Shown: positions 44,929 to 62,554, counted from the first letter of the stretch. The stretch: 64,000 bases of DNA from Akkermansia muciniphila (GCA_963611795.1 CAVDSZ010000007.1:21014-85013), one strand, 5' to 3'. A program made the numbers and translations. Notes: generated by a model not told the origin, from the sequence alone.

Positions 44929-44961
44929 TTTTGACTCCAAAAACGATATCGTGTTTTTCGT

Positions 44962-44993
44962 CCCCTGCCGGAGACCCGGCAGGGGGCGTTTTT
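44962..44993 (+). terminator. Terminator of the giant LRR gene
   Basis: Stem cccctgccgg-agac-ccggcagggg (44962-44985), followed by gcgTTTTT. Confidence 0.8.
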
Positions 44994-45086: not shown

Positions 45087-45115
45087 TTTACAAGTCTGGA
45101 GGAAAGTGCTATATT
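45087..45115 (+). promoter_or_regulatory. Promoter of the MoxR/vWA/LRR operon
   Basis: TTTACA (45087-45092), 17 nt spacer, TGcTATATT (extended -10, 45107-45115). Confidence 0.6.
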
Positions 45116-45205
45116 ATAATATACATATAATAAGCAGAACTGTGGAAATGTTTTTTCGCCGAAAAGCGTGGAACCGTATCGAAAATGAAACGCGGGAGGA
45201 TTCTT

Positions 45206-46288
45206 ATGAGCAAGCAGAAACGAACAGACACATCGGTATCGGAAGCCGAAAATTTGCTTTCGCAATACCGCACCCGCCTTGCAACAGAGGGCTGGATTAA
45301 GTCCGCGCTTTGCGGTCTGACCGTCGCTTTCGTGCTGAATATCATCTATACGTTTGTCTGCCTCCTGTTCGGCATTAAGGTGTATTGGGTCAGCGCCATT
45401 CTCATTGTCGCGGGCGCGGCGACCACACCGCTCTTCTATTTCGTGAAATTCAGAAAATCGCTCCGGCAGGTTGCGTCCCGCGTGGATACGCTGGGGCTTG
45501 AGGAACGTGTGCTGACGATGGCAGGGCTCGAGGGCGATGACAGTTTTATGGCGCGCCGCCAGAGAGAGGATACCATTCGCGCACTCAAGACCGTGAACGC
45601 GTCACTGATTAAGTTGGCGGTCTCCGTTCCGCTGATTGTGATGTGCGCCACGACTTTTGCCGTGAGTGCCACGACGACCACTGTCAATGCGCTGGTGGAT
45701 CAGCCGCTGCTCGACCTCAGCGGGGAACAAAAAGAAGATGTCTTCTATGATGTGACCTACGAGGTGAAAGGTGAGGGCGGAAGCATTGCCGGTCTTACGG
45801 TGCAAAAGGTGAAGGCAGGCTCGGTTGCAAGTCCGGTACAGGCGATTGCCGAGGACGGATATGCGTTCGCCGGTTGGTCGGACGGGTATGAAGAAGTGTT
45901 CCGCGCCGACGCAGATGTGACCGGTGAGATTCATGTATTTGCCGTTTTTACATTGATTGACGAGAACGATTTACCCGATCCCGGCGATGAAAGCGAGTCG
46001 GAGGGGGATGAAAAGGACGGTTCGAGTAAAGCCGACCAGAGCGGTCAGCAAGCCCCCGGTCAGCCCGATGACCCTGGTGACCCGAGCGACGAAGATCCCG
46101 ATGACGTCGGAGGCGGCGCCGGCGGTGCCTCCTCGCCGAGCAACAAATACATGGATGGCAAGACCTACTACGGCGATGACTACAGTAACAGCCTCTCCGA
46201 CGCGCAGGACGCCATGAATTCCAGTACGGATTTGAGCGGCGACCAGTCGGACGTCATCGGCGACTATTTCAACAATATCGCAAAATAA
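45206..46288 (+). CDS. Membrane protein (about 3 TM) with one InlB B-repeat-like domain and an acidic, low-complexity C-terminal tail
   Basis: TM segments are SALCGLTVAFVLNIIYTFVCLLF, VSAILIVAGAATTPLFYFV and LAVSVPLIVMCATTFAV. The B-repeat is YDVTYEVKGEGGSI...DGYAFAGWSDGY...IHVFAVF. The tail is D/E/G/P-rich. ATG 45206 follows GGGAGG. Confidence 0.6.
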   Translation: MSKQKRTDTSVSEAENLLSQYRTRLATEGWIKSALCGLTVAFVLNIIYTFVCLLFGIKVYWVSAILIVAGAATTPLFYFVKFRKSLRQVASRVDTLGLEERVLTMAGLEGDDSFMARRQREDTIRALKTVNASLIKLAVSVPLIVMCATTFAVSATTTTVNALVDQPLLDLSGEQKEDVFYDVTYEVKGEGGSIAGLTVQKVKAGSVASPVQAIAEDGYAFAGWSDGYEEVFRADADVTGEIHVFAVFTLIDENDLPDPGDESESEGDEKDGSSKADQSGQQAPGQPDDPGDPSDEDPDDVGGGAGGASSPSNKYMDGKTYYGDDYSNSLSDAQDAMNSSTDLSGDQSDVIGDYFNNIAK

Positions 46289-46334
46289 TTTAGCATCACC
46301 CAAAAAGATAATTTACGGAAAAGGGAATATCAAA

Positions 46335-47381
46335 ATGGTTACAGAAGAAAGCATTCAGCAGTTCAGCGCGCTGTGCGAGCGCATTTTCACCGAGACCCGC
46401 AAGGATATGATCGGGCAGGAAGAAGTCGTGAGAAATACGATTATTGCCCTGATTGCAGGCGGTAATATTCTGCTCGAGGGCGTGCCGGGCGTTGGTAAGA
46501 CCCGACTTGTCCGGACGCTCAGTCGGGTGTTCGATCTTCCTTTTTCGCGTATTCAGTTCACCCCTGACCTGATGCCGGCGGACGTGACCGGTACCAACAT
46601 CATCACCAAAGATGAAAACGGGAATTCGACCTTTCGCTTTGAGCCGGGCCCGATTTTCGCCAACCTGATTCTCGCGGACGAAATCAACCGTGCCACGCCG
46701 AAAACGCAGTCCGCTCTGCTGGAGGCGATGCAGGAGCATACCGTCACCGTCATGGGTGTTTCCCGGAAGATGAAAGAACCCTTCTTCGTCCTCGCAACGC
46801 AGAACCCGGTGGAGCAGGACGGTACCTATCCGTTGCCGGAGGCACAGATGGACCGTTTCATGTTCAAGCTTGTGGTGGATAACCCCTCGCTCGAAGATTT
46901 GAAAGGCATCGTTACCATGACGCAGAAGACCATGGGCGAGACCGCCGAAGTCGCCTGCAACGCCGAGCAGCTGCTCGAGATGCGCGAGATTGCGAACCAG
47001 ATTCCCGTCGCCGACGAGGTGCTGGACTTCGCCATGAAGGTGATTGCCGCTACCCAGCCGGACAGCGCGTATGCGTCGGAGGCGGCTAAGAACTACATTC
47101 GTCTCGGTTCCTCGCCGCGTGGAGGTCAGGCGCTGATTTCCGCCGCGAAGGTGCTGGCACTGATGAACGGCAGATTCAATGTGTCTTATTCGGATGTCGC
47201 TACGCTGGCATTCCCGGTACTGCGCCACCGTATGAAGATGAATTTTGAGGCAATCGCCGAGCGCGTCGCTCCCGACACGGTCATTCGCATGATCGTCGAG
47301 GAGGTTGCCAAGAAAAATAAGGTGCATCTCGATGCGAGTGTGTGGAACGCCGCTACGGGAGACAACAGTAAAAACGGATGA
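46335..47381 (+). CDS. MoxR-family AAA+ ATPase (AAA_3)
   Basis: Walker A LLEGVPGVGKT. Walker B ILADEINRATPKTQSALLEAMQE. Also TQNPVEQDGTYPLPEAQMDRF. Confidence 0.9.
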   Translation: MVTEESIQQFSALCERIFTETRKDMIGQEEVVRNTIIALIAGGNILLEGVPGVGKTRLVRTLSRVFDLPFSRIQFTPDLMPADVTGTNIITKDENGNSTFRFEPGPIFANLILADEINRATPKTQSALLEAMQEHTVTVMGVSRKMKEPFFVLATQNPVEQDGTYPLPEAQMDRFMFKLVVDNPSLEDLKGIVTMTQKTMGETAEVACNAEQLLEMREIANQIPVADEVLDFAMKVIAATQPDSAYASEAAKNYIRLGSSPRGGQALISAAKVLALMNGRFNVSYSDVATLAFPVLRHRMKMNFEAIAERVAPDTVIRMIVEEVAKKNKVHLDASVWNAATGDNSKNG

Positions 47382-48274
47382 AATCTTATTTAAACGACGC
47401 ATTCTTCAGTCGTCTGGAGGCGCTTGCATTCAATCTCCGCCGGGATCTCGGCGGGTACTTCGGCGGTAAGCATCTGGTCAATACCTATGGGCAGACCGTA
47501 GAGTTCGCCGATTACCGGGAGTATATGCTGGGTGATGACATCCGCCGCATTGACTGGAACCTGTACAGCCGTTTCGAGAAGTACTTCATCAAGTTGTTTA
47601 CCGACGAGCGGCAGATGCAGGTGCAGATTTACATAGACTGCTCCGGCTCTATGGGGAAGGTCAATCCCGACAAGGGCGCGTACGCCATCGGCGTTGCCGC
47701 CGCCATGGGGTATCTCGCAATCCATAATATGGACAAGGTGTCTTACCACCTGATTCGCGGGGATAAAGCCGAGAATCCGTTCGGCACCATTGTGGGGAAG
47801 ACGGCGTTCTTCCGTGCGATGAAGACCTTGGATCAGACCGAATTTGACGGCGATGCGAACATCTCCAAAGCCATCATCGGGAACCCGAATACCGGGACCG
47901 GCGACGGACTGACAATCGTCATTTCCGACTTTTTCTCCGGCGAAGACTGGAAAAAGGGAATTGATTATCTCGTCTATAAAAAGAAACAGATTCTGCTGAT
48001 GCAGGTCTTTTCACCGGACGAGTTGGATCCTACCTACACAGACAGAATCAACCTTATTGACGCGGAGGCGACTGACCTCGCAGATAGCCGGAATATGAAA
48101 CTCCGCATCAATAAATCCATGCAGCTGGCGTTCCGCGAGGCGGTCACAGCCTTCTATGACGACATCGGTAATTTCTGCAAGAAACGCGGCGCCGGATTCA
48201 TGGCGCTCGACTGCGAAAAGCCGATTGAGCGGCAACTCTTTTCCGAACTGCTAAAACGAGGTACCGTATCTTGA
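47378..48274 (+). CDS. DUF58-domain protein (MoxR partner)
   Basis: EFADYREYMLGDDIRRIDWNLYSRFEKYFIKLFTDE is the DUF58 signature. Start overlaps the moxR stop (ATGA). Confidence 0.85.
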   Translation: MKSYLNDAFFSRLEALAFNLRRDLGGYFGGKHLVNTYGQTVEFADYREYMLGDDIRRIDWNLYSRFEKYFIKLFTDERQMQVQIYIDCSGSMGKVNPDKGAYAIGVAAAMGYLAIHNMDKVSYHLIRGDKAENPFGTIVGKTAFFRAMKTLDQTEFDGDANISKAIIGNPNTGTGDGLTIVISDFFSGEDWKKGIDYLVYKKKQILLMQVFSPDELDPTYTDRINLIDAEATDLADSRNMKLRINKSMQLAFREAVTAFYDDIGNFCKKRGAGFMALDCEKPIERQLFSELLKRGTVS

Positions 48275-50295
48275 GATTACTCCTACCACTCGGACTCCTC
48301 GCTCTTGTCGGAATTCTTCTTCTTATCTTAATTTATATCATCAAGCCGAATTTCCAGCAAAAGTTGATTTCCAGTACATATATCTGGAAATTGAGTCTAA
48401 AATTCAAGAAGCGAAAGATCCCGATCAGCAGGTTGCGTAACATTTTGCTTGTGGCGTGCCAAGTGCTGATTATTACCGCCATCTCGCTGATTCTCTCCAA
48501 GACCGTTTGGGTGCTGAAAGAGCAGATTACACAGCCGGAGGTGGTGCTGATTATCGACTCTTCCGCCAGTATGCGGACGGGCGATGAAGTATCCAACCGC
48601 TATACTCGCGCGGTGGATGAAGCTATCAAAGAGGCGAATAAGGCCTTTGACCGGGACGGGATTGTTTCCGTCATCGTGGCCGGGGGAGAGAACACATACC
48701 TCGCGGAGCGGGCTTATAAGGAAAACAGAGAGCAGGTCATCTCGGCGATGGACGCTCTCCTCGCCGGTGACACGAGTTGCACATACGGATCTGCCGATAT
48801 GAGTGCCGCGGTGGCAATGACGGATCGCGTGCTGCTGGAAAACCCCGACGCGAAAATCTATCTTTACACCGACTCGACATACGCCGGTCTGTCCGATAAT
48901 ATCAGTCTTGTTAATGTTGCGGAAGAGACGGAATGGAATGCCGCCATTCTTGATGCGACCGCCACATATGAGGACAACTATTACACTTTCCGTGTCGAGG
49001 TGGCTTGCTACGGCAGAGACAAGGATCTGACGTTGAGACTGACGGTCAACGGTGCCAACGCCGAGAGCAGTGAAGACACCGCTGCCGGAGACCGGTTGTG
49101 GACGGTGACCGTCCCCTGCATGAATGACGGAGTCTATACGGCAATCTTCAAATATGTGCCGGTGGAGGAGGAACAGGCATTCCTCGATACGCTGGACGAT
49201 ACGACGGTTTTCTATAATATCCCGGTCGGTGCCACCGAGGGGCAGGACGAGCGCGTCTATGCATACCAGTCAGTTTTCGTCACCATCGACGAGCGGGATT
49301 CCATGCCGCAGGACAATGCTTTCAGCCTTTATGGCGGACTGAAAGAGACCGTTAAGATTCAGTATTACAGTTTTGGGACAGACCCGAAAACGGGCGTTTC
49401 CCTCGGTCCGAACATTTTCTTCCAGCAGGCTTTGGCGGCGGTTCAGAAGATTTATGCCGATCGCTGGAATATCGAAATCACGGAAGTCAAGAAGGGCAAT
49501 CCGTACGCGACGGAAGGATTCGATTTCTACATCTTTGAACATGAGATGCCGGCGAAACTTCCCACAGACGGCGTTGTTCTCCTCGCGGATCCGATGTCCG
49601 CACCGGCGGATGCGGGCTTTGAGGTGGAAGGCTATATTGACCGTAACGGGCAAAGTGTTTTCCTCGCGTCCGAAACGCTGCACCCGATTCTCAGCGGAAT
49701 GACGCCGACCAATATTTCGGTCAGCCGCTACACCCAGCTGAAAGTTAAGGATACGGCGTATACCTGTCTCCTCTCTTACGGCGCAGATCCGCTTCTCCTC
49801 GTTAAGAACGGGAAGGAAGCGCGCGTGGCGGTCATGCCCTTTTCGCTACACTATTCCAATCTGCCCCTGCTGGTGGATTTTCCGCTTTTGATTAACAATC
49901 TGTTCGGGTACTTTTTCCCGACGACGGTTGACTCGATGGCAATTGAGGCAGGGGAAGATGTTCTGCTCAACTGCCGCGGGGAGGAACTGACGGTCAGCGA
50001 CGGCGTGAATGAGACGACTTTCAACACATTCCCGGCGAGTATGCGCCTGGATGTCCCCGGCTCCTACACCGTCTCGCAGACAACCTATGCCGGCAAAGAT
50101 GTCGTAGAAACCATTTATGTGAGAATGCCGCGTGCGGAAAGCAATATTTTCGCGCAGGAGGGTGCAATTCGCAGTCCGTATTACGAGATTGACGAGAGCG
50201 ACTACTATGCCGATGTGCTGTTGTATATCGCTTGCGCTTTGGTGGCGTTGCTGATGCTGGAATGGTATCTGCAACACCGCGAAAGCAGTCTTTAA
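48271..50295 (+). CDS. BatA_N (aerotolerance-regulator N-terminal) + vWA domain membrane protein
   Basis: The N-terminus is MRLLLPLGLLALVGILLLILIYIIKP. The vWA MIDAS motif is VVLIIDSSASM. A C-terminal TM reads LLYIACALVALLMLEWY. The TTG start overlaps the DUF58 stop (TTGA). Confidence 0.75.
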   Translation: MRLLLPLGLLALVGILLLILIYIIKPNFQQKLISSTYIWKLSLKFKKRKIPISRLRNILLVACQVLIITAISLILSKTVWVLKEQITQPEVVLIIDSSASMRTGDEVSNRYTRAVDEAIKEANKAFDRDGIVSVIVAGGENTYLAERAYKENREQVISAMDALLAGDTSCTYGSADMSAAVAMTDRVLLENPDAKIYLYTDSTYAGLSDNISLVNVAEETEWNAAILDATATYEDNYYTFRVEVACYGRDKDLTLRLTVNGANAESSEDTAAGDRLWTVTVPCMNDGVYTAIFKYVPVEEEQAFLDTLDDTTVFYNIPVGATEGQDERVYAYQSVFVTIDERDSMPQDNAFSLYGGLKETVKIQYYSFGTDPKTGVSLGPNIFFQQALAAVQKIYADRWNIEITEVKKGNPYATEGFDFYIFEHEMPAKLPTDGVVLLADPMSAPADAGFEVEGYIDRNGQSVFLASETLHPILSGMTPTNISVSRYTQLKVKDTAYTCLLSYGADPLLLVKNGKEARVAVMPFSLHYSNLPLLVDFPLLINNLFGYFFPTTVDSMAIEAGEDVLLNCRGEELTVSDGVNETTFNTFPASMRLDVPGSYTVSQTTYAGKDVVETIYVRMPRAESNIFAQEGAIRSPYYEIDESDYYADVLLYIACALVALLMLEWYLQHRESSL

Positions 50296-50307
50296 GGAGG
50301 CGGAACG

Positions 50308-53190
50308 ATGGTACATTTCAAAATTCATTTTTCCTATCCGTTGCTCCTCCTGGTATTCTTGCTCGGGCTTGCAATTACGGCACTTTTGTACTTCCGCCTC
50401 TCCAAGAAGTACAGAAAGAACAGGAACCGCGTTACCTCCATTGTGTTGCATCTGATTGTGTTCGCTCTGGCGGTGCTGACCATGGCGGGAACCATGTTTA
50501 CTTATGAGATCCCGAATAAGGAGAATCAGATCATTCTCCTCGTTGATGTATCCGATACGGAAGAGCAGTCCCGGGAGGTAAGGGATACGTTCGTTAAGAC
50601 GATCCTCGACATGGGTCAGTACGACGGGTTCAGTATCGGTATTGTGACGTTCGGCTATAACCAGGTCTACGCCGTGGAAATGACGAATAAGATATCGGTC
50701 AACGATATGATGAACCGTTATCGGTCGGCAGAACAGCCGGATACGTCGGCGACCGACATCGCCGCCGCACTGACCTATACCGCGAATCTCTTTACTAACC
50801 CGGAGGCAGGCAGAATCGTGCTTGTCACGGACGGTAAGGAGACGGACGAAAAGGCATCCTCGGTGATTCGCTCCGTCAGTGCGCGGGGCATCGGCGTGGA
50901 CGTTGCCAATATCCCCTCAGCCTATGAGGGGAGCGATATGCAATTGGTCGGAGCCGTGCTGCCGGATTACCATGTGTCGCCCGGTGCGGGCTGCGTGGTT
51001 GCCGCCACGCTGTATGCGCAGACGGCAGGCGATGTCAAGGTCGAGTTTTTCGACAACGGCAATCTGGTGTCGACACAGGATTTTAAGGCGGCAGTCGGTA
51101 CGCAAAATGTGACTTTCAACCACACGTTTTCGGGGGCGGGTCTCCACACGCTTTCTTTCCGTCTCTCGACAGAAACGAACGATGTGCTGAAAGAGAACAA
51201 TACCTACTATACCTATATGAACCTCGAAAACTTTGATAACGTGCTGATTCTTGAGCATAAGAACGGAGAGTCCGATCGGCTGAAGGCACTCCTCACCGAA
51301 GGGGAGAGCGCGTACAAAGTGACGGTCAAAAACATCAAGACCGATACGACCGTTCCTACGACAATCGAGGAAATGCGTCAGTACGATCAGGTGATTCTCA
51401 ACAATATCGCCCGCGCCGATATGCCGGAAGGGTTTGAGGAACTGTTGCAGGAATATGTCAGCGTCTACGGTGGCGGTCTTTTCACCGTCGGTGGCGCCGA
51501 TGAACTGCCGGGCGTGACAGGGAACGACCGATTTGTTGCCCACGCCTATAATCGCGAGGATATGTGGGGCAGTATCTATCAGGAACTCCTGCCTGTGCAG
51601 GCGATTCAATATACGCCTCCGATTGGGCTTATGGTCATCGTGGACCGCTCCGGTTCTATGAGTGAAGTGGACGGTTCGACCGGCAGTACCTATTATGATC
51701 TGGCACTGTCCGGCGCGAGAGGGTGTCTTGAGGCGCTCACGGAACGTGACTATTTCGGTCTGATGACACTCGACAGCGACTACGAGACACTTCTGCCGCT
51801 GACACCGCGTTCCCAGGACAATAAGATTAAAAAAGCGATTTTCGATGCACAGGAACTGGGGCCGACGGGCGGTACCGTGTTCCCGGACGCAATCGAACGC
51901 GCGAGCCGCGCGCTCCTGTCGCTCAACGTGGCGAGACGTCACGTCATCATCGTAACGGATGGTCAGGTCCCCGAGACGCAGGAGAAAGAATACCTCGATT
52001 ATATCCAGCAGTATCATAAAAATAACGGTATTACCTATTCCGTTGTCGGGATTGGTGTCGCCGAGGGGTCAGATGCCGCGACGCAGATGAAGAAGGCGTG
52101 TGATCTCGGTGGGGGCAGACTGTATGCCCTGACGAACGGTACCTCGGTCACAGGTTCCATGCGGGAAGACCTGCGTGTGCCGGACATCAAAGAGGTCAAC
52201 TACGATACCTATTACCCAACTGTCCGCAATACGCTGTCCACACTTCTGAACGGCATTGCGCTGTCGACGACGGAAGACGGACACCAGACCCCGAAGATGA
52301 CGGCATCTCTGGACGGTTTCTTCGGCGTCAAAGTCAAGGACGGTGCCGAACTCGTCCTGATGGGCGACTACGACGTGCCCGTATATGCACAATGGAAATA
52401 CGGAAAAGGGACGGTCGGCAGTTTCATGTGTGACCTGAACGGCACCTGGTCGTCGGACTTCCTGACCGAAACGCCGGAAAACAACGGCTCGGGTCGGCAG
52501 TTTATCCGCAATGTGGTCAGTGCTCTGATGCCGACAGAGTCCGTGCGTGAGAATCAGATTACGGTCAACATCGAAACAGATAACTACACGAATCTGCTCA
52601 GCGTCTTTTCGCAACTCGGCGACGGCGAACGTATCGTAGGCTATCTGAAGAACATGGCGGACGCCTCCGGCACGTCCCTGTCACTGAGCGAGGTGACGGC
52701 GGCGCCGGCGGGGGGGAAGCTCGAGAGCCTCGCCTGCTATGTCACCTCTGCACTCAGTGCCGCCAATAAGTACAGTCGCGCCGGTTTCGTCATTAAGCAG
52801 GCGGGCGTCTATGAACTTACTTTGCAGAAGGTGGATGAGGCGGGTAACGTCCTTGCCGAATATACGACATACCGCGCCTTCTCGTACTCCGAAGAATATG
52901 ATCAGATGGCAGTTCCCACAAACGCGGACCTCGCCGTGTCGCTCACCGCTTTGGCGAAAAACGGTGGTGGCTCTCTGATTGTGAAGAATGAGGATCCGAT
53001 TGAGGTCTTTGCCAATTTTGTGACCTCGGTGCAGAAATCCTTTGACCCGAGATACCTGTTCATGATCCTTGCGCTGATTCTGTTCCTCGCAGATGTTGCG
53101 GTTCGTAAGTTTAAGTTCAAATGGCCGCACGAACTGATACGTGCACATCGCGAAAAGGTCCAGAAGAAGAAAGGAGGATCCGATCAATGA
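50308..53190 (+). CDS. BatA_N + double-vWA membrane protein with a central unassigned domain
   Basis: The N-terminus FSYPLLLLVFLLGLAITALLYF is followed by a second TM. vWA-1 is IILLVDVSDTEE. vWA-2 is LMVIVDRSGSMSE. The C-terminal TM reads YLFMILALILFLADVAV. AAGGAGG lies before the ATG. Confidence 0.75.
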   Translation: MVHFKIHFSYPLLLLVFLLGLAITALLYFRLSKKYRKNRNRVTSIVLHLIVFALAVLTMAGTMFTYEIPNKENQIILLVDVSDTEEQSREVRDTFVKTILDMGQYDGFSIGIVTFGYNQVYAVEMTNKISVNDMMNRYRSAEQPDTSATDIAAALTYTANLFTNPEAGRIVLVTDGKETDEKASSVIRSVSARGIGVDVANIPSAYEGSDMQLVGAVLPDYHVSPGAGCVVAATLYAQTAGDVKVEFFDNGNLVSTQDFKAAVGTQNVTFNHTFSGAGLHTLSFRLSTETNDVLKENNTYYTYMNLENFDNVLILEHKNGESDRLKALLTEGESAYKVTVKNIKTDTTVPTTIEEMRQYDQVILNNIARADMPEGFEELLQEYVSVYGGGLFTVGGADELPGVTGNDRFVAHAYNREDMWGSIYQELLPVQAIQYTPPIGLMVIVDRSGSMSEVDGSTGSTYYDLALSGARGCLEALTERDYFGLMTLDSDYETLLPLTPRSQDNKIKKAIFDAQELGPTGGTVFPDAIERASRALLSLNVARRHVIIVTDGQVPETQEKEYLDYIQQYHKNNGITYSVVGIGVAEGSDAATQMKKACDLGGGRLYALTNGTSVTGSMREDLRVPDIKEVNYDTYYPTVRNTLSTLLNGIALSTTEDGHQTPKMTASLDGFFGVKVKDGAELVLMGDYDVPVYAQWKYGKGTVGSFMCDLNGTWSSDFLTETPENNGSGRQFIRNVVSALMPTESVRENQITVNIETDNYTNLLSVFSQLGDGERIVGYLKNMADASGTSLSLSEVTAAPAGGKLESLACYVTSALSAANKYSRAGFVIKQAGVYELTLQKVDEAGNVLAEYTTYRAFSYSEEYDQMAVPTNADLAVSLTALAKNGGGSLIVKNEDPIEVFANFVTSVQKSFDPRYLFMILALILFLADVAVRKFKFKWPHELIRAHREKVQKKKGGSDQ

Positions 53191-55958
53191 AACGTGTGAC
53201 AACATTGCTTTGCGTTGCGTTGACGCTGGGGCTCCTTCTTCTCCTGACCGCCTGCGGTCATAAACTGACGGCGCCGGACGATCTCACAGTGGACGATGAC
53301 CTGAAACTGACATGGACGACGGTTGAATCCGCTCGGTTTTATACGATTGAGATTAAGAATGTCGACAGCGGAGAGACAGTCAATAGCAATTCACGCCTGA
53401 ATTCCAAGGAGTTGAACGATCTCGAAGTCGGTGATTATGAAATCCGTGTCATGGCGACCGGCGGCGCCGATAACGAGTTGACCTCCACCTGGTCGCGGAC
53501 GTTGGCTTTCCATCGGGATTATGAATCCGGATGTGTTTACGAACTTTATAACGGAAACAGCGAATACCGGATTCTTCGGGCGGGAAGCGCGCGTGGCGAT
53601 GTCTTGATTGAAGGGACTTACCGCGGAAAGCCCGTCACCGCCATCGCGGACAATGCATTTAAGGGCAACCCAAGTATTGTAAATGTGGTGATTGGTGAAA
53701 ACCTGCGTACAATCGGAGAGAACGCGTTCTATAACTGCCCCAAGTTGAATTCCGTTTCTCTGCCGGAGAGCCTGACGTCTCTCGGCAAATCCGCGTTTCA
53801 GGGGTGCCGCGCGCTGACGGAGGTCAATCTCCCGTCCGGGCTGACGTCCGTGCCGGAGTTGTGCTTTGCGTATTGCCGCGCGCTCACGTCCGTGACGATC
53901 GGCGACCATGTTAAAACGATTGGCAAGTCCGCTTTCTCGGGCGCCGCTTTGACATCGGTCGAGATTCCGGACAGCACGACGACGATTGAGGATAGCGCAT
54001 TTGCCGAGATGGACGCCCTAACGGAAGTCACAATCGGCAGTGGCGTGACGACCATCGGAAACTACGCTTTCAGCACGAATGAAAAACTCACATCAGTTAC
54101 TTTTGCCGAAGGTAGTGCGCTTGACAGCATCGGTTACTACTGTTTTCGGAATGACAAACTCTTGACGGAGATTGTCCTCCCTGAGGGGCTTACAGACATC
54201 GGCAGTCTGTGTTTTCTTGACTGTGTTGCCCTTGCGTCCGTCAGCATTCCGGACAGCGTGACGCATATCGGCAACGCCGCTTTCAATAACACGCAGGTCT
54301 ATACAACGTCACCGTCGGATTTCGTGTATGTGGGGCGGTGGCTGGTTGCCGTCAAAAATCGGGATACCTATCAGAAGATTGACACGACCCATATCGTGAA
54401 CGGTACGGTCGGCATCAGCGACTACTGCTTTTCGCAGGCAAAGACGCTGGAGAGCGTGACGTTGCCTGCCTCTCTGCAGACGGTCGGCAGATATGCGTTC
54501 CAGCGGTGTTCCGAACTTGCCGAATTTAAATCCGGCACTTCGCTCCGGTACATTCAGATCGGTGCCTTTTCCGGGTGTGAAAAACTGTATAAGTTGAATC
54601 TTACGGAAGGGCTCCTCGACATCGACGACTATGCCTTTTATGGTTGTACGATGCTGGACAACAACTCGCTGAGATCCATCGTGCCGAAGTCCGTACAGCG
54701 AATCGGTATCAATGCATTTAAAAATACGCGCCTCTGGGGCAAGCCGGATGAGAATAACATCATCTATGCCGGCACATGGGTCGTCGGCTATAAGGAAGAT
54801 GCTTCACTCGGCGCTGCGACGCTTTCGGAGAGCGTGACGGGGATTGCAGACTATGCATTCCTGGACTGCGAGACGCTCGTCAATCTCGTCAACCTGAACC
54901 AGTGCCGTTACATCGGCGAGGGGGCGTTCTACAACTGCTCCAAGTTGGAATCGGTCGTCCTACATAACCGTGTGACGAATCTGCCCGATTATGTGTTCTA
55001 CAAATGTGCGAGCCTGTACAATATCAATGTGCCGACCTATCTCGAGCAGATCGGGCGTGCCGCATTCTATAAGTGCGCTTCGCTCGGCGGGACGCTGGAC
55101 TTCAGCGAAACGCTCGCGTTCCGTTCCATCGGCGCCAATGCGTTCTATCAGTGCACGAACCTTCGCAATGTCAATTTCGGAGAGAACCTGATGGATTTGG
55201 GTACCTATGCATTCTATAACTGCACATCGCTGCAGGGGGTGCTGATTCCGGACACGGTGAGGGATATTCCGGACTATGCGTTCGCATTTTGTCCGGCGCT
55301 TGAGACCATGACGATTGGTTCCGGTGTGGAGCGCATCGGTGACTATGCCTTTTATAAGTGCCAGGGGCTGACGGAACTCCGCCTGCCGGACGCTTTGAAA
55401 GTCATCGGAAACAACGCTTTTTATAAATGTACAGGGATTCAGATACTGGAACTTGGGAAATCCCTCGAGACCATCGGAGATTATGCATTCCTCGGGCTTG
55501 ATCAGGTGACGGACATGACGTTGCCCGTGACCCTGACGAGCATCGGCAGACACGCATTTAAGGGGCTTGCATCGCTCCGGACGCTGATGATTCCGAAGAG
55601 CGTGCGGGATATCCGTATCAATGCATTTTACGGTTGCCGTAACGTGACCTTCTTTGTAGAAGAGGGGACGGACATGAGCGGCTGGAATATCCGGTGGAAT
55701 TCCTCCAACCGCCCGGCGGTAATCGGCGCGAGACTCTCCGATAACAGCGACTATGTTGCATCGGTTACCGTGGGAGCGGGGACGCTGAAGAACGTGAGAA
55801 GTCTTGTGGATACAATCACCCCCATCTCTTCTCCCGAGCGTGCCGGATATGTTTTCGGCGGCTGGGAGCGGCAGGACGGCAGTCTCATCGGCACCGAGGA
55901 TCTTTCCTCTGAGCCGGAGGGGAGCGAACTCACGGCAGTATGGAACCCGCGCACATAA
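53187..55958 (+). CDS. BspA-type LRR lipoprotein (923 aa) with an N-terminal Fn3-like module and a C-terminal InlB B-repeat
   Basis: The lipobox is LLLLTAC. An LTWTTVESARFYTIEIKN module follows. LRR_5-type units include VTAIADNAFKGNPSI..NVVIGENLRTIGENAF. The C-terminus carries AGYVFGGWERQDG. ATG 53187 overlaps the upstream stop (ATGA), with AAGGAGGA upstream. The track start at 53121 lies inside the previous gene. Confidence 0.8.
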   Translation: MKRVTTLLCVALTLGLLLLLTACGHKLTAPDDLTVDDDLKLTWTTVESARFYTIEIKNVDSGETVNSNSRLNSKELNDLEVGDYEIRVMATGGADNELTSTWSRTLAFHRDYESGCVYELYNGNSEYRILRAGSARGDVLIEGTYRGKPVTAIADNAFKGNPSIVNVVIGENLRTIGENAFYNCPKLNSVSLPESLTSLGKSAFQGCRALTEVNLPSGLTSVPELCFAYCRALTSVTIGDHVKTIGKSAFSGAALTSVEIPDSTTTIEDSAFAEMDALTEVTIGSGVTTIGNYAFSTNEKLTSVTFAEGSALDSIGYYCFRNDKLLTEIVLPEGLTDIGSLCFLDCVALASVSIPDSVTHIGNAAFNNTQVYTTSPSDFVYVGRWLVAVKNRDTYQKIDTTHIVNGTVGISDYCFSQAKTLESVTLPASLQTVGRYAFQRCSELAEFKSGTSLRYIQIGAFSGCEKLYKLNLTEGLLDIDDYAFYGCTMLDNNSLRSIVPKSVQRIGINAFKNTRLWGKPDENNIIYAGTWVVGYKEDASLGAATLSESVTGIADYAFLDCETLVNLVNLNQCRYIGEGAFYNCSKLESVVLHNRVTNLPDYVFYKCASLYNINVPTYLEQIGRAAFYKCASLGGTLDFSETLAFRSIGANAFYQCTNLRNVNFGENLMDLGTYAFYNCTSLQGVLIPDTVRDIPDYAFAFCPALETMTIGSGVERIGDYAFYKCQGLTELRLPDALKVIGNNAFYKCTGIQILELGKSLETIGDYAFLGLDQVTDMTLPVTLTSIGRHAFKGLASLRTLMIPKSVRDIRINAFYGCRNVTFFVEEGTDMSGWNIRWNSSNRPAVIGARLSDNSDYVASVTVGAGTLKNVRSLVDTITPISSPERAGYVFGGWERQDGSLIGTEDLSSEPEGSELTAVWNPRT

Positions 55959-56027
55959 ACGATGTCCCGCTCTGATTCGAGAGGATCGGTTAATTCAGTG
56001 ATTTAAATTTGGTTAGGAAATGAAAAA

Positions 56028-59000
56028 ATGATGAAAAAGACACATCTGCTCCTGCTGGTAAGCATCCTGATTCTGCTTTGCGGGCTCTTGACCGCCTGCG
56101 GCAAGACCGAACAGGTCAATCTTACCATGGTCAACGGCGACGGAAACGAGCAGACCGTCGTGCAGATTAAAAAAGGCGAGACCTATACGCTGACGGATCC
56201 GACCCGCGAGGGATATGCCTTCGCCGGTTGGTACATGAATGCAGATTTCTCCGGGGCGCCTGTCACCTCGGTCAAACCGGACGCGGGCATCACCGTTTAC
56301 GCGAAGTGGAATAAACTCTATGAACTGACACTTGATCCCGACGGCGGTACGCTGTCCACGACGAAAGTGTCGCTCGCCGCCGGGGATTTGATTTCCGAGA
56401 AGATCGCCGGTCTAATCCCCGAAAAGGCAGACTGCCGCTTCGGCACCTGGCTCCTGAACGGGGAGCCCCTTTCGGACGACGCCGTGATGGGGAACGAGAA
56501 TGCCACGCTGGTTGCAAAGTATCAGATTAAGTTCACGGCGGAGATTTTCGCGCAGAACGAGGCACTGGACGGTTATGACCGTGTGTCGGAGTTGTTTGTG
56601 GATTACGGGTACATCGGCGACGCCGTGACACCCACCTACACGCTCACCGGCTTTAAGACGGTCACCAAGTCCGACAGTGTGACGAGACTTGTCCTCTCCG
56701 GGGATACGTCGAAAAATGTTTTCCGGCTGTATTTTGACCGTCAGAGCTGTACCCTGACCTTTGCCTCCAACTACCCGGACGGCTCCGAGAACACAAGAAA
56801 GACGGAATCGCTGATTTATGGCATCAAGACGAAACTGCCGTTCGTGACGTTTGAGAAAGCCGGGTACTACCTGGAGGGCTGGTCGCTGACCCCGAACGGG
56901 GAGATGGTCTATTCTTCTCATGTAATGGACGGCAAACTCTACGGTGCGATGACCCCTGAGGTCGAGGAGTTGACGTCTACCGGTAACGTGACACTATACG
57001 CCGTGTGGAGCAAGGGTTATACCGACCTCTTCGGCGGTTCGGACATCATGTATGTCTCAAAGGGTGACGAAAAGACCGTTTACCTCTGCCGTGGTGACCG
57101 TTATTTCAAGGGTACGCTCATCAACGGCAGAACCATTGCGTTCCCCGGTGCGAATGTACCGGCGGACTTCCCGGATGCCGTACTGAATTTCGACGGTGAA
57201 ACCTTCCTCTATAAAAAGGGCAGCCGCGCGGAAATCACCGCTACGCTGTATGAGATGGGTGCCGGCAAGGGGCTTAATGAACTGGTCAAACTGATTTTCA
57301 ACGACGAGAACGGTGTGACCTACTCCGAGAAGGCGAGCGAGGACGCGACTTCGACCGTGGACTCGGAGGGGACTTATGTCTTTGATGATGAAGGCAATCT
57401 GGTGACGACTTTCACGTCCGGTCCTCTTGCGGGCAAGACGCTGATTATTGCTGTCGGTACCGTGACGGTCGACAATGTCCGAAAGACGGCTTTCCAGGTT
57501 AGAAACGAAGAGGAAATCGCTCTCGGCAAGATTTATCATTTCGTTGTGAAGAACAATGTGCTGGTGGTGGATGCCGATGATGCCGGCAATGCGGTCAAAG
57601 ACCTCATACTGGACGGTTTCGGTATTGCTACCTACAATACCGGTTCCGGCACCAATACGTTCTACTATACTTACGACGCCGAGAGCCGCACCATTACCCT
57701 GATTTCGCAGGGGCAGGTGGCAGGTGTGCTTCGCCTCATGGAGGTGGACGGCATGCTCGGTTACATGATTTACAATGCCTCGAACGATGTGACCTATACC
57801 CTCGCGGACGGTTCCACCCTGACGCTGGACGGTATCCAGACCGCGACTTATACGGTGGGGGGCGTTGCACACAGCGGCTACTTTACCGCGGCGAAATCCG
57901 CGTTTGGCGGTGTGATTCTTACCTTTACCGAGGACGGCGTGACCTATAAGTTTATGATTACGACCAAGTCGCAGGAGGTACTCGTGGATCCCGATAACCC
58001 CGGTAGCGGTACGACCTCGACGACCGTAACTGTTGTCGAAAAGTTGGTTGCCGGGTATGCGGAATATTACTATAAAGATGCCGACGGCACTTACTACGGA
58101 CCGCTCTTCGTGTTTGAGAGCGAAGACCCCACGAAAGTGACCGTTTACGGCTACAACAAAGAGAAGCAGTATCATAAGATTGCGATCGGTACGCTCTCGA
58201 CCGACGCGGCGACGGGACTGTACCTGCTCACGGTCAATGAGACCTTCGCCTTGCCGGAGGGCACCACGCCCGTTTTCACAGAGCCGGTGGATTTCTCCAA
58301 GGTCAAGACTTGTGTGCTGATGCTGGACTCCGAGCTGACTCAGTACAGCATTCACTTCTGGTTCAATTACAGTGACGGTGTGGAGACCTTTGACAAGACG
58401 CAGGCCTTTACCGACAGTAACGGTGGTAAGTTGACGCTGGTGGCGGGCTTCGCCATTTACCAGATCAACGGCAAGAGCGAGATGGGGGTCTGCAAGCAGA
58501 ACGGCGACGCGCTTACCGTGACTTTTGTGGATCGTACCCTGTACTTCACGCTGGATACCACCGCGATGACGTATACCGTGTCGACCACCACCGCTGCAAC
58601 GTATGCGGAGGTAGGGAAAGACGGTCAGATTTCCAAAACATATTACCTTATTATTGATCCTGTCAGCGGCGTGACCTATTGCGTCATTACGGTGGACGGC
58701 GAAACGCAGACTGTGAACAAGTATCCCGGTACCCTGACGAGAACCGGCGCTACCTCGCTGACCAACTTCACCATCTATCACTTCGACTCTACCGAAAAGG
58801 CAGAAGGGACGGATACGCCACTCTATTCGTTCGATTTCATCGAGCGTACCCTGTCAACCGGGAACTACTTCTTCCGCTATGACGAGGCATACGCCGGCAC
58901 GTTTACCAACCCGACGACGAACGGTGTTTTGAAACTGGACGGGTTCGGGCTTGCCGCCACTTACTCCGACAGTACGGGTCTCTCCCTCATGGGAATGTAC

Positions 59001-61094
59001 CAGAAGAGCGGGAATGACGTGATGATTTCCTATAATAGGGACAGCTACTACTTCCTGCTCTCCGGCGCCTCCTGCGCTTTGCGCGGGGATGAATACGGCA
59101 AAGTCTATCTTATGATGGACAATCAGGTATTCGACGGACTGTATGTAGAACTTGACGGTCTCGGTCATGCGACCATCTTCCGTATGGTTCAGAGCGGGGA
59201 GACGTATGAGAGAGAAACGGTTGATGAAAACGCTACTTATACGATTTCCGGCGACAGAGCCACCATTACGTATAAGAACGGCGCCGAGACGCATACGATT
59301 ACGGTTCGTTTAGGCACGGTGACAATCGGCAGCAATACGCGGTACGCCCTGCATACCATTCACGACGAAGTCGTTTATTCGTATGTGAATGAAGAGGATT
59401 GGTCGGTCCTGCGCCTGAACGGCGACGGCACCGCCACCAAGTATCTGACGGACGGCGCATTCGAGACGGGTACCTATTCGTTGGTGACCGAGACGCTGCT
59501 GTACTATGTCAATGCGAGCGGCACGGAGGCGTATATTTACACCTACGATACCGAGCGCGGTACGGCGACGCCCCGCCACTATGATGCGGTAGCGTACTAC
59601 ACGCCCGAACTTGATTCGCTCCTGTTCTCGCAATACGGGTTTGCGATTTTTAACAACAGCACGAGATACTACTACACGGTGGACGAGAATGGCAACGTCA
59701 CGCTGTATCACCTCGACGAGACCGCGACCAATAAGAACCGGTACGGTTATGTGGAAGAGAGTTTCGGGACGCTTACCGACACGAAGTCCTATAACGAAAA
59801 GACCTACTACAAGAATGACGGCTTTGCCATCAGTTTTGTCCGCGCAGATGCTACGAAGGACTATTACCCGGTACATGTTGATGAGACCAATATGCTACCG
59901 ACGCTGATGCTGACCTTTGCGCCGACCGGCGACGAGAACTTCTCGGTCAGCGGGACAGTGGTCATCGGCACCGACAGTTATAATTGCACGGTGGTCAGAG
60001 AGACGGTGGACGGCGTTTCCAGAATGTACTTTACCGTTGCCACCTTCCGTTTCGATATCACAATCAAGTATCAGGGTGACGGTGTCGGGAGCGATGTCAA
60101 GAGCACCTATGCGGTCACCGGGCTGACCAGTATCAATACGATGCCCTCGTACACGTATCTCTACTACCTGTACTACATCTACTCCATGATGGGGTCGCAG
60201 TACGCGAGCCAGTTTGAGAACACCTTCGGTACCGTATCGCTCTGCACGGTGTATAAGCAGGACGGCTCTGTCGAAGAGAGTTACATGGATGCGACCTTCG
60301 GCAAGAACGCCAATCTGATGGAGAGCGACGGGACGCTGATAGAAAAGCTCGAGCATGTCGCTCTTAACTACCTTGGCAGTGGCTTCTACCGCGTCGCGTT
60401 CGAGGGCGGTGACGGGTATCAGTACACGATGATTCTGGTGAGACGCTATATGTCGGTATTCAACACCTACGGCTACAGCGTTTACGCTCTCCTGCGTGAA
60501 GAAACGGTGGGGGCGAACGATGGATATGCCGTGACTGTCGACCGCGTTGTGGCGTCCGATGTCGGGCTGTCCACCGGTGCCTACTTCTCCTTCTCTCTGA
60601 CTAAGGACGGCGAGGAAATCACCGCCTCCAACGTCATTATGAGCAACGGGAAGTTGTACTACATCGTCAGAGATGAAAGCGGAAAAACGTATTACTATCA
60701 GTTGACGCTCATCGAGAAGAGTTCCGGTAGCTTAGATGACGGCACCGGTGAGGGTGGGACGACCAACCCCGACGAGACGACGGATGAAGAGAATAAGCCG
60801 TTGCCGACCCTTGAGAGTGCGACGGTCACGAAGATTGAGGCAACTACCGTTCGCACGGCGGATGGCAAGAACTACGTGGATATTCTCCCCGAGAATCAGA
60901 TTCTGCTCATGGTTCTGACGACCGAGCAGGACGGCGAGGAGACAGAGACGGCTGTACTGGTCGCGGAATGCAACTATGACGCCGAAACCGGTGTTTATAC
61001 ATTAAAGACCAGCGATGATAAGACCTACACCGTGTCCGTTACGGACGGTGTCGCGACAATCACCGAAACCACCGAGACGACGACTGAAGCCTGA
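56028..61094 (+). CDS. 1688-aa lipoprotein: N-terminal InlB B-repeats followed by about 1250 aa of unassigned repeated beta-rich modules
   Basis: The lipobox is GLLTAC. B-repeats include REGYAFAGWYMNADF...ITVYAKW and AGYYLEGWSLTPNG...VTLYAVW. The remainder carries the recurring motif L.LDG.G.A.Y. There is no LPXTG motif and no C-terminal TM. Confidence 0.7.
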   Translation: MMKKTHLLLLVSILILLCGLLTACGKTEQVNLTMVNGDGNEQTVVQIKKGETYTLTDPTREGYAFAGWYMNADFSGAPVTSVKPDAGITVYAKWNKLYELTLDPDGGTLSTTKVSLAAGDLISEKIAGLIPEKADCRFGTWLLNGEPLSDDAVMGNENATLVAKYQIKFTAEIFAQNEALDGYDRVSELFVDYGYIGDAVTPTYTLTGFKTVTKSDSVTRLVLSGDTSKNVFRLYFDRQSCTLTFASNYPDGSENTRKTESLIYGIKTKLPFVTFEKAGYYLEGWSLTPNGEMVYSSHVMDGKLYGAMTPEVEELTSTGNVTLYAVWSKGYTDLFGGSDIMYVSKGDEKTVYLCRGDRYFKGTLINGRTIAFPGANVPADFPDAVLNFDGETFLYKKGSRAEITATLYEMGAGKGLNELVKLIFNDENGVTYSEKASEDATSTVDSEGTYVFDDEGNLVTTFTSGPLAGKTLIIAVGTVTVDNVRKTAFQVRNEEEIALGKIYHFVVKNNVLVVDADDAGNAVKDLILDGFGIATYNTGSGTNTFYYTYDAESRTITLISQGQVAGVLRLMEVDGMLGYMIYNASNDVTYTLADGSTLTLDGIQTATYTVGGVAHSGYFTAAKSAFGGVILTFTEDGVTYKFMITTKSQEVLVDPDNPGSGTTSTTVTVVEKLVAGYAEYYYKDADGTYYGPLFVFESEDPTKVTVYGYNKEKQYHKIAIGTLSTDAATGLYLLTVNETFALPEGTTPVFTEPVDFSKVKTCVLMLDSELTQYSIHFWFNYSDGVETFDKTQAFTDSNGGKLTLVAGFAIYQINGKSEMGVCKQNGDALTVTFVDRTLYFTLDTTAMTYTVSTTTAATYAEVGKDGQISKTYYLIIDPVSGVTYCVITVDGETQTVNKYPGTLTRTGATSLTNFTIYHFDSTEKAEGTDTPLYSFDFIERTLSTGNYFFRYDEAYAGTFTNPTTNGVLKLDGFGLAATYSDSTGLSLMGMYQKSGNDVMISYNRDSYYFLLSGASCALRGDEYGKVYLMMDNQVFDGLYVELDGLGHATIFRMVQSGETYERETVDENATYTISGDRATITYKNGAETHTITVRLGTVTIGSNTRYALHTIHDEVVYSYVNEEDWSVLRLNGDGTATKYLTDGAFETGTYSLVTETLLYYVNASGTEAYIYTYDTERGTATPRHYDAVAYYTPELDSLLFSQYGFAIFNNSTRYYYTVDENGNVTLYHLDETATNKNRYGYVEESFGTLTDTKSYNEKTYYKNDGFAISFVRADATKDYYPVHVDETNMLPTLMLTFAPTGDENFSVSGTVVIGTDSYNCTVVRETVDGVSRMYFTVATFRFDITIKYQGDGVGSDVKSTYAVTGLTSINTMPSYTYLYYLYYIYSMMGSQYASQFENTFGTVSLCTVYKQDGSVEESYMDATFGKNANLMESDGTLIEKLEHVALNYLGSGFYRVAFEGGDGYQYTMILVRRYMSVFNTYGYSVYALLREETVGANDGYAVTVDRVVASDVGLSTGAYFSFSLTKDGEEITASNVIMSNGKLYYIVRDESGKTYYYQLTLIEKSSGSLDDGTGEGGTTNPDETTDEENKPLPTLESATVTKIEATTVRTADGKNYVDILPENQILLMVLTTEQDGEETETAVLVAECNYDAETGVYTLKTSDDKTYTVSVTDGVATITETTETTTEA

Positions 61095-61132
61095 ATCCGG
61101 ACTGAAGCCTGCATCTTAATTTATCAGACCCT

Positions 61133-61166
61133 ACAGGGCTACCAAACGGTAGCCCTGTTTTCTTTT
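61133..61166 (+). terminator. Terminator ending the MoxR/vWA/LRR/lipoprotein operon
   Basis: 11-bp stem acagggctacc / ggtagccctgt (61133-61158), followed by tttcttttg. Confidence 0.8.
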
Positions 61167-61219: not shown

Positions 61220-62554
61220 TTAGAAATATCCATATTTTTTACGGTTGAGGAAGAGCATGGTGAGCGAGACAATAAGCGCGAACGCCTCTGCCGCCGTGAT
61301 TGCCCACCAAATGCCGTCCACTCCGAAGAGCAGCGGCAGGAGCAGTACGGACGCGGACTGAAAGACGAGCGTACGCAGGAACGCAATGAGTGCCGAGACG
61401 CCGCCGTTGTTCAGCGCAGTGAAGAAGCCGGAGACATAGATATTGATGCCCGTCAAAAGGAACGAGAACGAGAAGATGCGGAACGCATGGACAGTCAGCG
61501 CGTACAGCGTCGCGTCGTAGCCGACAAACAGATGTGCGAGGGGGATTGCCAGTACTTCGGCAAGCCCGGCGAGACAGATTCCGGCGAGCCCCATGAGCAG
61601 GAGGCTCTTGCGGAGCAGATTCTTTAGTTCCGCCCGGTTTTCGGCACCGTAGTGATAACCGACAATCGGCGCTGCCCCGACCGAATAGCCCACTTCGAGG
61701 GCGACAAAGATGAACTGCACATACATCAGTACGCCATAAGCGGATACGCCGTCCTCGCCGATTCTCTCCATGAGGATCAAGTTATAGAGCATACTGACGA
61801 GCGAGGCGGAGATGTTGTCCATCAGCTCCGATGAACCGTTGGCACATACGGCGAAGAGCTGCCGGACTTCGCGTGCGGGGCGGCAGAGTCGTAACAGGCA
61901 GGAGGGACGTTCTTTGGCAAAGTAGAGGATGGGGATCAGCCCGCCGACACATTGCCCGATTCCGGTCGCGAGAGCCGCGCCGGCAAGCCCCCAGCGGAAG
62001 CCGGCGATAAAGAGGGCGTCAAGCGCTGCGTTGGTACAGCCGGCTGCCACGGTGACGATAAATCCGAGTTTCGGCTTTGCCGCCGCAGCGAAGAAGGACT
62101 GAAACATGCTTTGGAGCATGAACGGAATCGTGAAAGCAATGACAATCCTGCCGTAGAGAACGCAGTCCTCAATCATGGCGTCGCTCGCTCCGAGCAGATG
62201 CGCAATCGGGCGCGTGCAGGCTACACCGAAACCGGTCAGCAGGACACCGAAGAGGACGGTGAAGAGAATACAGAGGGAAAAGGTGCGGTTTGCCCTCTCG
62301 CGGTCGCCTTGCCCGAGGATTTTTGTCACGAGCGCGGTGCCGCCGGTGCCCACCATGAATCCCATACCGCCGAGAATCATAATGAACGGCATGATAAGGT
62401 TAATGGCAGCAAAGGGGGTTTTACCGATAAAATTGGAGACGAACAGCCCGTCTACCACCCCGTAGATGGAGGTAAAAATCATCATGGCGGAGGTTGGCAG
62501 GACGAACCGAATCAGTTTTCGATAGGTGAAATGATCGGATAATCGTATAGACAT
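61220..62554 (-). CDS. MATE-family efflux transporter
   Basis: 12-TM protein. The N-terminus YRKLIRFVLPTSAMMIFTSIYGVVDGLFVSNFIGK... and overall pattern are typical of MatE. Confidence 0.85.
   Translation of the reverse strand: MSIRLSDHFTYRKLIRFVLPTSAMMIFTSIYGVVDGLFVSNFIGKTPFAAINLIMPFIMILGGMGFMVGTGGTALVTKILGQGDRERANRTFSLCILFTVLFGVLLTGFGVACTRPIAHLLGASDAMIEDCVLYGRIVIAFTIPFMLQSMFQSFFAAAAKPKLGFIVTVAAGCTNAALDALFIAGFRWGLAGAALATGIGQCVGGLIPILYFAKERPSCLLRLCRPAREVRQLFAVCANGSSELMDNISASLVSMLYNLILMERIGEDGVSAYGVLMYVQFIFVALEVGYSVGAAPIVGYHYGAENRAELKNLLRKSLLLMGLAGICLAGLAEVLAIPLAHLFVGYDATLYALTVHAFRIFSFSFLLTGINIYVSGFFTALNNGGVSALIAFLRTLVFQSASVLLLPLLFGVDGIWWAITAAEAFALIVSLTMLFLNRKKYGYF

Follow-up and report, generated by a model that had tools for sequence, protein, structure and literature searches.

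A 64,000-nucleotide stretch of DNA (CAVDSZ010000007.1:21014-85013 of assembly GCA_963611795.1, labelled Akkermansia muciniphila; the whole stretch is called the window here) contains a gene cluster in which a MoxR ATPase, a DUF58 protein and two von Willebrand factor A (vWA) membrane proteins – a set resembling the Bacteroides aerotolerance (Bat) operon – are encoded beside very large leucine-rich repeat (LRR) and B-repeat lipoproteins. Seven consecutive genes on the + strand, numbered g1 to g7 in their order, span 45185-61094, as read from the map of open reading frames (ORFs), the translations and the Pfam matches; another large lipoprotein gene on the same strand, g0, lies immediately upstream. 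These seven ORFs and their domains had been described in an original prediction made from the sequence alone, and they are found where it placed them, bar a B-repeat in g6.

The first gene, g1 (45206-46288, with a longer reading frame from 45185), encodes a 360-residue membrane protein that consists, in order, of two transmembrane segments, a conserved and predicted cytoplasmic segment of ~50 residues (RxDxLGLEER...QRED), a third transmembrane segment, an external B-repeat, an acidic tail and, at the C-terminus, a conserved DGxTYYG motif. Its N-terminus is basic, its tail holds 20 Asp or Glu in 61 residues, and its B-repeat scores 25.2 bits with Flg_new_2 (cutoff 23.6) and 25.9 bits with Flg_new (cutoff 27). 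The start at 45206 is most likely the true one, because from that Met onwards the sequence is identical to that of a database protein and because relatives have a conserved Shine–Dalgarno sequence before it. There follow g2 (46335-47381), the MoxR-type AAA+ ATPase (AAA_3, E = 2.7e-62; AAA_lid_2, E = 1.9e-17), and g3 (47378-48274), the DUF58 protein (DUF58, E = 2e-28). The Walker A (GVPGVGKT) and Walker B (LADEINR) motifs of g2 are at least 90% conserved among 56 orthologues, and AAA_3 reaches 209 bits, against 45 bits for bpMoxR (cutoff 27) over the same region; the DxSxS motif of g3 is kept in at least 90% of orthologues. As neither product has a hydrophobic segment, both are predicted to be cytoplasmic.

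The next two genes encode the vWA proteins. The BatA-like g4 (48271-50295; 674 residues), which matches BatA at 26.2 bits (cutoff 25.9) as well as VWA_2, runs from a first transmembrane segment through a loop with ten positive charges to a second transmembrane segment, a predicted external vWA domain (D96xS98xS100), an ectodomain of ~430 residues without a domain match and a C-terminal transmembrane segment; a sequence search of the PDB gave no match. The BatB-like g5 (50308-53190; 960 residues) has two VWA domains and a GATase1_like domain, arranged as a first transmembrane segment, a loop with seven positive charges, a second transmembrane segment, vWA1, the GATase1-like domain split by vWA2, a β-region, a C-terminal transmembrane segment and a cytoplasmic tail. 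The GATase1-like domain comes in two pieces (residues 307-410 and 668-719; window 51226-52467), with vWA2 inserted between them. In a profile search the best PDB relatives of g5 are BatB (3ibs, E = 4.5e-09) and an aerotolerance-related membrane protein (4jdu). Conservation of at least 90% is seen at D96/S98/S100 and T200/D201 of g4, at D80/S82, T149 and D175 in vWA1 of g5, and at D446/S448/S450, T523 and D551 in its vWA2. The original prediction had also cited yeaC–yeaD–yebA of Bacillus as a set of this kind; YebA, however, is transglutaminase-like rather than a vWA protein.

The charges of these proteins suggest how they sit in the membrane. The N-terminal loops carry +10/0 (g4) and +7/0 (g5), so the positive-inside rule would place the large middle portion of each protein outside the membrane – a prediction that agrees with the topology of the Borrelia BatA-like protein BB0173, whose vWA domain has been shown experimentally to face the periplasm (PMC5700661). 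The tail of g5, with +8/-3, includes an almost invariant RKFKFKWPHE. It is also in the predicted cytoplasmic segments that g1, g4 and g5 are best conserved: column identity is 0.56 in segment 89-140 of g1, compared with 0.21-0.42 elsewhere in that protein, 0.70 in segment 25-57 of g4, compared with ~0.41 in its ectodomain, and 0.74 and 0.73 in segments 30-41 and 936-948 of g5, compared with 0.37-0.58 in its ectodomain. These values come near those of MoxR (0.73) and DUF58 (0.65).

The remaining three genes encode proteins that, from their signals, would be lipid-anchored on the outer face of the cell. Upstream, g0 (35368-44928; lipobox LLAAC) is a 3186-residue protein with 21 LRR_5 stretches, three B-repeats (Flg_new) and FN3-like modules. 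The 923-residue g6 (53187-55958; lipobox LLLTAC) has an FN3-like module and six LRR_5 stretches, and a lipobox is present in 63 of 73 g6 orthologues. The LRR_5 matches have E = 0 in g0 and 1.6e-158 in g6; the C-terminal B-repeat of g6 is degenerate and stays below threshold (TIGR02543, 17.8 bits; cutoff 20.95). The third, g7 (56028-61094; 1688 residues, lipobox LLTAC), begins with B-repeats (Flg_new, E = 1e-18) and continues as an all-β meander of ~1350 residues. The lipoproteins diverge fast, with identities of ~30% for g0 and ~30-35% for g7 against ~73% for MoxR.

Beyond its N-terminal B-repeats, g7 matches no Pfam family (Lipocalin_4 gives a weak match only, E = 0.035), finds no relative in a sequence search of the PDB and, by BLAST against itself, has no internal repeats. 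RHS/YD repeats, suspected from YxYDxxG-like motifs, were rejected, as Pfam gives none. An AlphaFold2 model of residues 26-1201 built with 38 homologues is all-β (pLDDT 85.9, pTM 0.56), and one of residues 930-1125 is very confident (pLDDT 92, pTM 0.80), with 16 successive strands. Foldseek matches in the PDB are propeller proteins alone, at TM-scores of no more than 0.1 for the 1176-residue model and 0.26 for the 196-residue segment, which rejects a β-propeller identity; because the score to propellers is 0.26 at most, the fold as modelled is a blade-like β-meander without a recognisable closed propeller, and appears to have no solved relative (no PDB counterpart above 0.26). The family counts 492 representatives among 1.84 billion clusters at 50% identity, has a uniform length of ~1650-1750 residues, and its farthest full-length member that could be placed (30% identity) sits in a cluster of the same kind.

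Signals for transcription bracket g1–g7. At 45087-45115 lies a σ70-type promoter (TTTACA, 17 nucleotides, TG-n-TATATT), which in a consensus scan is the top-scoring + strand promoter-like site within the cluster (10/12 matches and an extended -10 TG); in the g0–g1 spacer of eight relatives with 59-78% g5 identity, the -35 TTTACAA, the 17-nucleotide gap and the extended -10 TGnTATAnT are invariant. Just before it, an intrinsic terminator follows g0 (44959-44988; a 13-bp stem with 11 GC pairs, then a T run), and a GC hairpin with a T run stands at that place in most of the eight relatives as well. Another intrinsic terminator follows g7 (61133-61166; hairpin 61133-61158, with an 11-bp stem and a T run). 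These two hairpins are the strongest + strand terminators in the scan, and other promoter or terminator matches inside the cluster are weak and lie within coding sequence. The single promoter and terminator that the original prediction had placed around the seven genes are thus the best site in the cluster and one of its two strongest terminators. The hairpin after g7 stands back to back with the - strand terminator (61202-61176) of a convergent MATE efflux gene (61220-62554, - strand).

Within the unit the genes are closely packed. The overlaps proposed to couple translation are present in the sequence, each of 4 nucleotides: ATGA at g2/g3, TTGA at g3/g4 and ATGA, preceded by AGGAGG, at g5/g6; the gaps measure 12 nucleotides (with GGAGG) before g5, 46 before g2 and 69 before g7. 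The g3/g4 overlap recurs in 59/61 loci of relatives and that of g5/g6 in 33/73, and 12 nucleotides is the commonest g4/g5 spacing. Given the conserved promoter, the terminator after g0 and these overlaps and spacings, g1–g7 are very probably a single operon. A terminator separating the LRR gene from the vWA genes would have split that operon; the start–stop overlap of g5 and g6 leaves no space for one. The 3186-residue lipoprotein is encoded immediately upstream, as had been noted, yet since g0 has a terminator of its own it is very probably transcribed separately, as a fixed neighbour of the operon.

How fixed this arrangement is can be judged from ~160 related loci, in which g5 identity ranges from 96% down to 37%. 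Relatives of g5 number more than 1000 at E ≤ 1e-10, and the named ones all belong to uncultured Clostridia (Christensenellaceae, Ca. Neoclostridium and similar). When GTDB was scanned with a single genome for each species, 385 genomes had a g5 relative, the best 80 loci of which were used (78 assemblies at 41-78% identity, all metagenome-assembled genomes (MAGs) from gut or rumen); a scan of metagenomes added another 80 loci, down to 37%. The hosts are a clade of uncultured, Christensenellales-like Clostridia of gut and rumen. Synteny was assessed by BLAST, counting only loci with enough flank, and the loci are partly non-independent, as several metagenome contigs come from the same species. 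In six metagenome contigs with 78, 69, 64, 59, 53 and 48% g5 identity, g0–g7 have the same order and nearly equal sizes. The LRR gene g6 lies immediately 3′ of g5 in 143 of 145 loci; in the two scored without it, an additional g5-like ORF intervenes and g6 comes next. Upstream, g4 precedes g5 in 131/135 loci, g2–g3 are found in 106/111, g1 in 100/100, and g0 (or another large LRR ORF) in 91/93; g7 follows g6 in 91 of 101. An LRR-free outgroup was not found: all loci retrievable through the conserved g5 motifs carry an LRR gene. At loci L155 and L157 (the L numbers denote individual loci of the survey), an additional ORF of ~500 residues resembling half of g5 was seen between the double-vWA and LRR genes.

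Past g7 this order ends. The downstream neighbours vary – MATE in the window and, elsewhere, an amidohydrolase, an LRR gene of ~1050 codons on the opposite strand or a subtilase–LRR gene of ~2500 codons – and the window's MATE gene occurs in none of the 88 loci that reach at least 1.2 kb past g7. The product of ~2500 residues, encoded 3′ of g7 on the same strand, combines Peptidase_S8, PA, fn3_5 and LRR_5 (L009, 20898-22805; L090, 15826-23349), and the one of ~1050 residues beyond g7 (L001, L003, L008) is an LRR_5/Flg_new protein. In one subclade (L032, L038, L054, L072, L078), MoxR–DUF58 lies outside its usual slot between g1 and g4; in L038 it stands directly 3′ of g7 (20723-22681), and in the other four it was not found again. 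Two MAGs have two clusters each, and within one cluster g1, g4, g5, g6 and g7 have common nearest relatives, so the set appears to have been inherited as a unit (MAG chimerism being possible).

Together, the end of synteny at g7, the relocation of MoxR–DUF58 and the co-inheritance in MAGs with two clusters argue for selection on linkage rather than residual ancestry, and a chance juxtaposition is ruled out by the synteny counts and the loss of synteny just past the cluster. The linkage between the MoxR/DUF58/vWA genes and the LRR genes, which the original prediction had read from one locus, thus holds across 78 species-level genomes and the metagenome contigs, down to 37% identity. We are highly confident that g0 and g1–g7 form one functional module. 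That its Bat-like part is dedicated to the surface proteins is well supported by comparative sequence evidence, because the lipoprotein genes are linked to MoxR/DUF58/vWA as tightly as the latter are to one another, the flanking genes being unconserved; assembly, anchoring or gating, the modes of action proposed earlier, are a matter of inference.

What the module might look like can be drawn from the predicted topologies. We favour, at a probability of about 0.5, a single cell-envelope complex in which the vWA proteins provide a docking platform for the lipoproteins, driven by MoxR–DUF58. Held in the membrane by transmembrane segments at both ends, g4 and g5 would expose their vWA domains, with the metal-ion-dependent adhesion site (MIDAS), on the outside, as a membrane-anchored and metal-ion-dependent platform for docking or assembly. 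This platform would bind acidic residues of the g6, g7 and g0 lipoproteins, and perhaps the acidic tail of g1, which would cross the membrane three times and expose its B-repeat and tail. From the inside, a MoxR hexamer with DUF58 as adaptor would act on the conserved cytoplasmic loops and tails of g1, g4 and g5, and so assemble, remodel or switch the platform, in a manner that may be likened to the inside-out control of integrin I-domains. The BspA-type LRR arrays would then likely supply the output, by adhering or by capturing ligands. In favour of this model we count the domain assignments, the conserved gene order and overlaps, the preserved Walker and MIDAS motifs, the charges and strong conservation of the cytoplasmic segments, the topology of BB0173 and the established role of vWA partners, which bring MoxR ATPases to their substrates (summarised in PMC11834572). 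The original prediction had reached a physical complex by another route, from B-repeats shared by the first, sixth and seventh products; these pass threshold in g1 and g7 but not in g6, and they are weak evidence, because many surface proteins of these bacteria carry the domain, so that the complex itself is still something we infer.

Several points weigh against such a complex. A cytoplasmic ATPase can affect external domains only through transmembrane coupling, and the strong conservation of the cytoplasmic segments could merely reflect faster evolution of the surface-exposed parts. Proteins with B-repeats or LRR_5 are common in these genomes, and Bat operons elsewhere have been tied to stress tolerance, not to adhesins (PMC3557215, PMC11834572). 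Among the most divergent loci are some that have lost or replaced g7 and, rarely, g0 (L129/L130, L146, L151, L160/L161/L164, L169), so the invariant set is g1–g6 only. Finally, the evidence is drawn wholly from uncultured MAGs and contigs.

These losses, together with the other LRR_5 surface genes found around the cluster in relatives (the Peptidase_S8–LRR gene and the 1050-codon LRR gene on the opposite strand), would suit a co-regulated island of surface-protein genes without any physical complex, in which the Bat-like core performs a general envelope task and the lipoprotein genes have the same promoter merely because their products are needed under the same conditions. We consider this unlikely: the g5/g6 overlap, and an order and size that stay fixed while identity ranges from 37 to 96%, are characteristic of subunits produced at a fixed ratio, the parts segregate together between paralogous clusters, and in one locus (L038) the relocated MoxR–DUF58 is again found at the end of the cluster.

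The rapid divergence of g0 and g7 relative to MoxR bears on another, distinctly unlikely explanation, namely surface sensing, in which the LRR and β-meander lipoproteins would detect phage, epibionts, host or neighbouring cells and pass a signal inwards through the vWA proteins to MoxR, along the lines proposed for the Esr pathway of actinobacteria and for MoxR–vWA–β-propeller conflict systems. Esr clusters do combine MoxR and vWA with a giant surface protein that is divergent and has a protein-binding repeat domain (bioRxiv 10.64898/2026.09.08.750141), the surface parts diverge fastest there too, g2 matches the bpMoxR model at 45 bits, and the Foldseek matches of g7, though very weak, are all β-propeller proteins. 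Yet g2 fits AAA_3 far better, and the vWA proteins belong to the membrane-bound BatA/BatB type and are accompanied by DUF58, neither of which is mentioned by Kaur et al. Neither the cluster nor its immediate surroundings yielded a kinase, a phosphatase, FHA, a transglutaminase, a toxin or other effector, or a regulator, and there is no PADLOC defence match. A defence-system identity was rejected on the same grounds, PADLOC giving trivial AAA similarity only and effector domains being absent.

The core gene set and the similarity to BatA and BatB raise the possibility that the cluster is of the classical Bat type and serves a strict anaerobe in stress or aerotolerance, with the LRR proteins as mere passengers; in Riemerella and others, mutants in bat or moxR are indeed stress-sensitive (PMC11834572). 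This is improbable, as passengers would not remain fixed across such divergence and the BatC, BatD and BatE (TPR/SH3) partners were not found; moreover, a full bat deletion in Leptospira has no oxidative-stress phenotype (PMC3557215), and the function of Bat is therefore itself unsettled. Highly improbable is a motility machine in which an internal ATPase moves giant surface proteins, as in the gliding legs of Mycoplasma mobile: the general layout of giant surface proteins plus a cytoplasmic ATPase and partial Gli349 matches (216 bits for g0, 130 for g6) recall it, but these fall repeatedly on one short LRR-like stretch of the model (NF045861, ~2687-2742 of 3169; cutoff 1750 bits), so that a Gli349 identity was rejected, Gli521 and Gli123 equivalents are absent, and MoxR ATPases serve as remodelling chaperones and are not known to be motors.

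The docking complex that we favour can be carried a step further, tentatively and with the odds against it, to an ATP-controlled adhesion machine of monoderm gut bacteria, a counterpart of the inside-out activation of integrins. From the cytoplasm, MoxR–DUF58 would take hold of the two membrane proteins by their short invariant loop and tail, and would thereby switch the external, I-domain-like vWA domains between holding, releasing and presenting the giant LRR and β-meander lipoproteins. If this were true, it would give Bat/MoxR–DUF58–vWA modules generally their first concrete set of clients. Operons of this type have been known for more than two decades and from many phyla without an agreed function, and outside Leptospira the stress phenotypes of bat and moxR mutants are indirect (PMC11834572). 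Here, a fixed set of lipoproteins in place of the TPR/SH3 partners – one of them, g6, coupled to the vWA gene in 33/73 loci – makes for concrete candidate clients. The clade is uncultured and common in gut metagenomes of humans, rabbits, deer and ruminants, and the ~26 kb of conserved coding sequence that it devotes to giant LRR surface proteins suggests an important organelle for binding to the host or to particles.

Other features of the window deserve brief mention. The GC content of the cluster is ~54%, that of the upstream housekeeping region ~61%. A tRNA-Tyr gene (34483-34567, + strand) comes with a promoter-like site of its own and a hairpin terminator of 18 bp (window 34432-35367), and ~700 nucleotides of apparently non-coding DNA with a lower GC fraction (0.49) separate this terminator from the start of g0. 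Further upstream (16671-25207) lie three paralogous AMP-binding enzymes, similar to acyl/aryl-CoA ligases, with unusual N-terminal fusions: a xylose-isomerase-like TIM barrel in one (16671-19121), and HTH_19 with Cupin_2 in the two others (20163-22568 and 22826-25207). Two tandem, overlapping paralogues of the CNNM–CBS–CorC type (Mg/Co efflux-like) occupy 5204-7851.

Among known systems, the closest is the Bat operon of Bacteroides, with its counterparts in spirochaetes, Riemerella and Francisella. The locus has the entire Bat-like MoxR–DUF58–vWA set – AAA_3 with its Walker A and B motifs, DUF58 adjacent to it and two BatA-type double-transmembrane MIDAS vWA proteins – and the outward-facing vWA domain predicted here has been shown for Borrelia BB0173. 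The partners differ: instead of BatC, BatD and BatE there are a B-repeat protein with three transmembrane segments, two BspA-type LRR lipoproteins and a 1688-residue all-β lipoprotein, and none of the seven products gave a match to a TPR, SH3 or BatD family, although unassigned regions were searched at E up to 10. The vWA proteins, of 674 and 960 residues, are 2-3 times longer; they have additional ectodomains, and a second vWA interrupts a GATase1-like domain. The host is a monoderm lineage of Clostridia.

Other MoxR–vWA pairs (RavA–ViaA, CbbQ–CbbO, NorQ–NorD, BchI–BchD and CoxD–CoxE/F) share the adjacency of an ATPase gene and a vWA/MIDAS gene, and their vWA proteins, too, are thought to bring the ATPase to its substrate; unlike here, they serve soluble or membrane enzymes inside the cell, whereas the MIDAS of g4 and g5 is predicted to lie outside the cytoplasm, with surface lipoproteins as the candidate clients. 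The Esr pathway and the MoxR–vWA–β-propeller systems (Kaur et al. 2020) likewise combine MoxR and vWA genes with a giant, fast-evolving surface repeat protein. They differ from the present cluster, which lacks a Ser/Thr kinase, phosphatase, FHA, transglutaminase or effector and has DUF58 and BatA-type vWA proteins; the survey of Kaur et al. does not mention DUF58, BatA or LRR-linked systems. Moreover, the surface protein of those systems is a filament of Ig repeats with a WD40 propeller, in contrast to the LRR arrays and lipid anchor found here.

On the side of the surface proteins, g0 and g6 resemble BspA-type LRR_5 adhesins (BspA, HupY/LrrG): both are dominated by LRR_5, with arrays of 21 and six stretches behind a lipoprotein signal, and both give partial matches to the HupY/LrrG model, though at 217 and 396 bits these are far under the equivalog cutoff of 1250. 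They differ from the adhesins in being lipoproteins rather than LPXTG or outer-membrane proteins. With InlB B-repeat surface proteins, g0, g1 and g7 have the B-repeats in common. In the literature searched, no known adhesin is described as encoded within a MoxR/vWA operon, nothing relevant links LRR, BspA or B-repeat proteins to MoxR or DUF58, or LRR proteins to Christensenellales, and, in line with the original prediction, which knew of none, no published description of a Bat-like system with LRR lipoproteins was found. The combination of a Bat-type MoxR–DUF58–vWA core with LRR and B-repeat lipoproteins is new.

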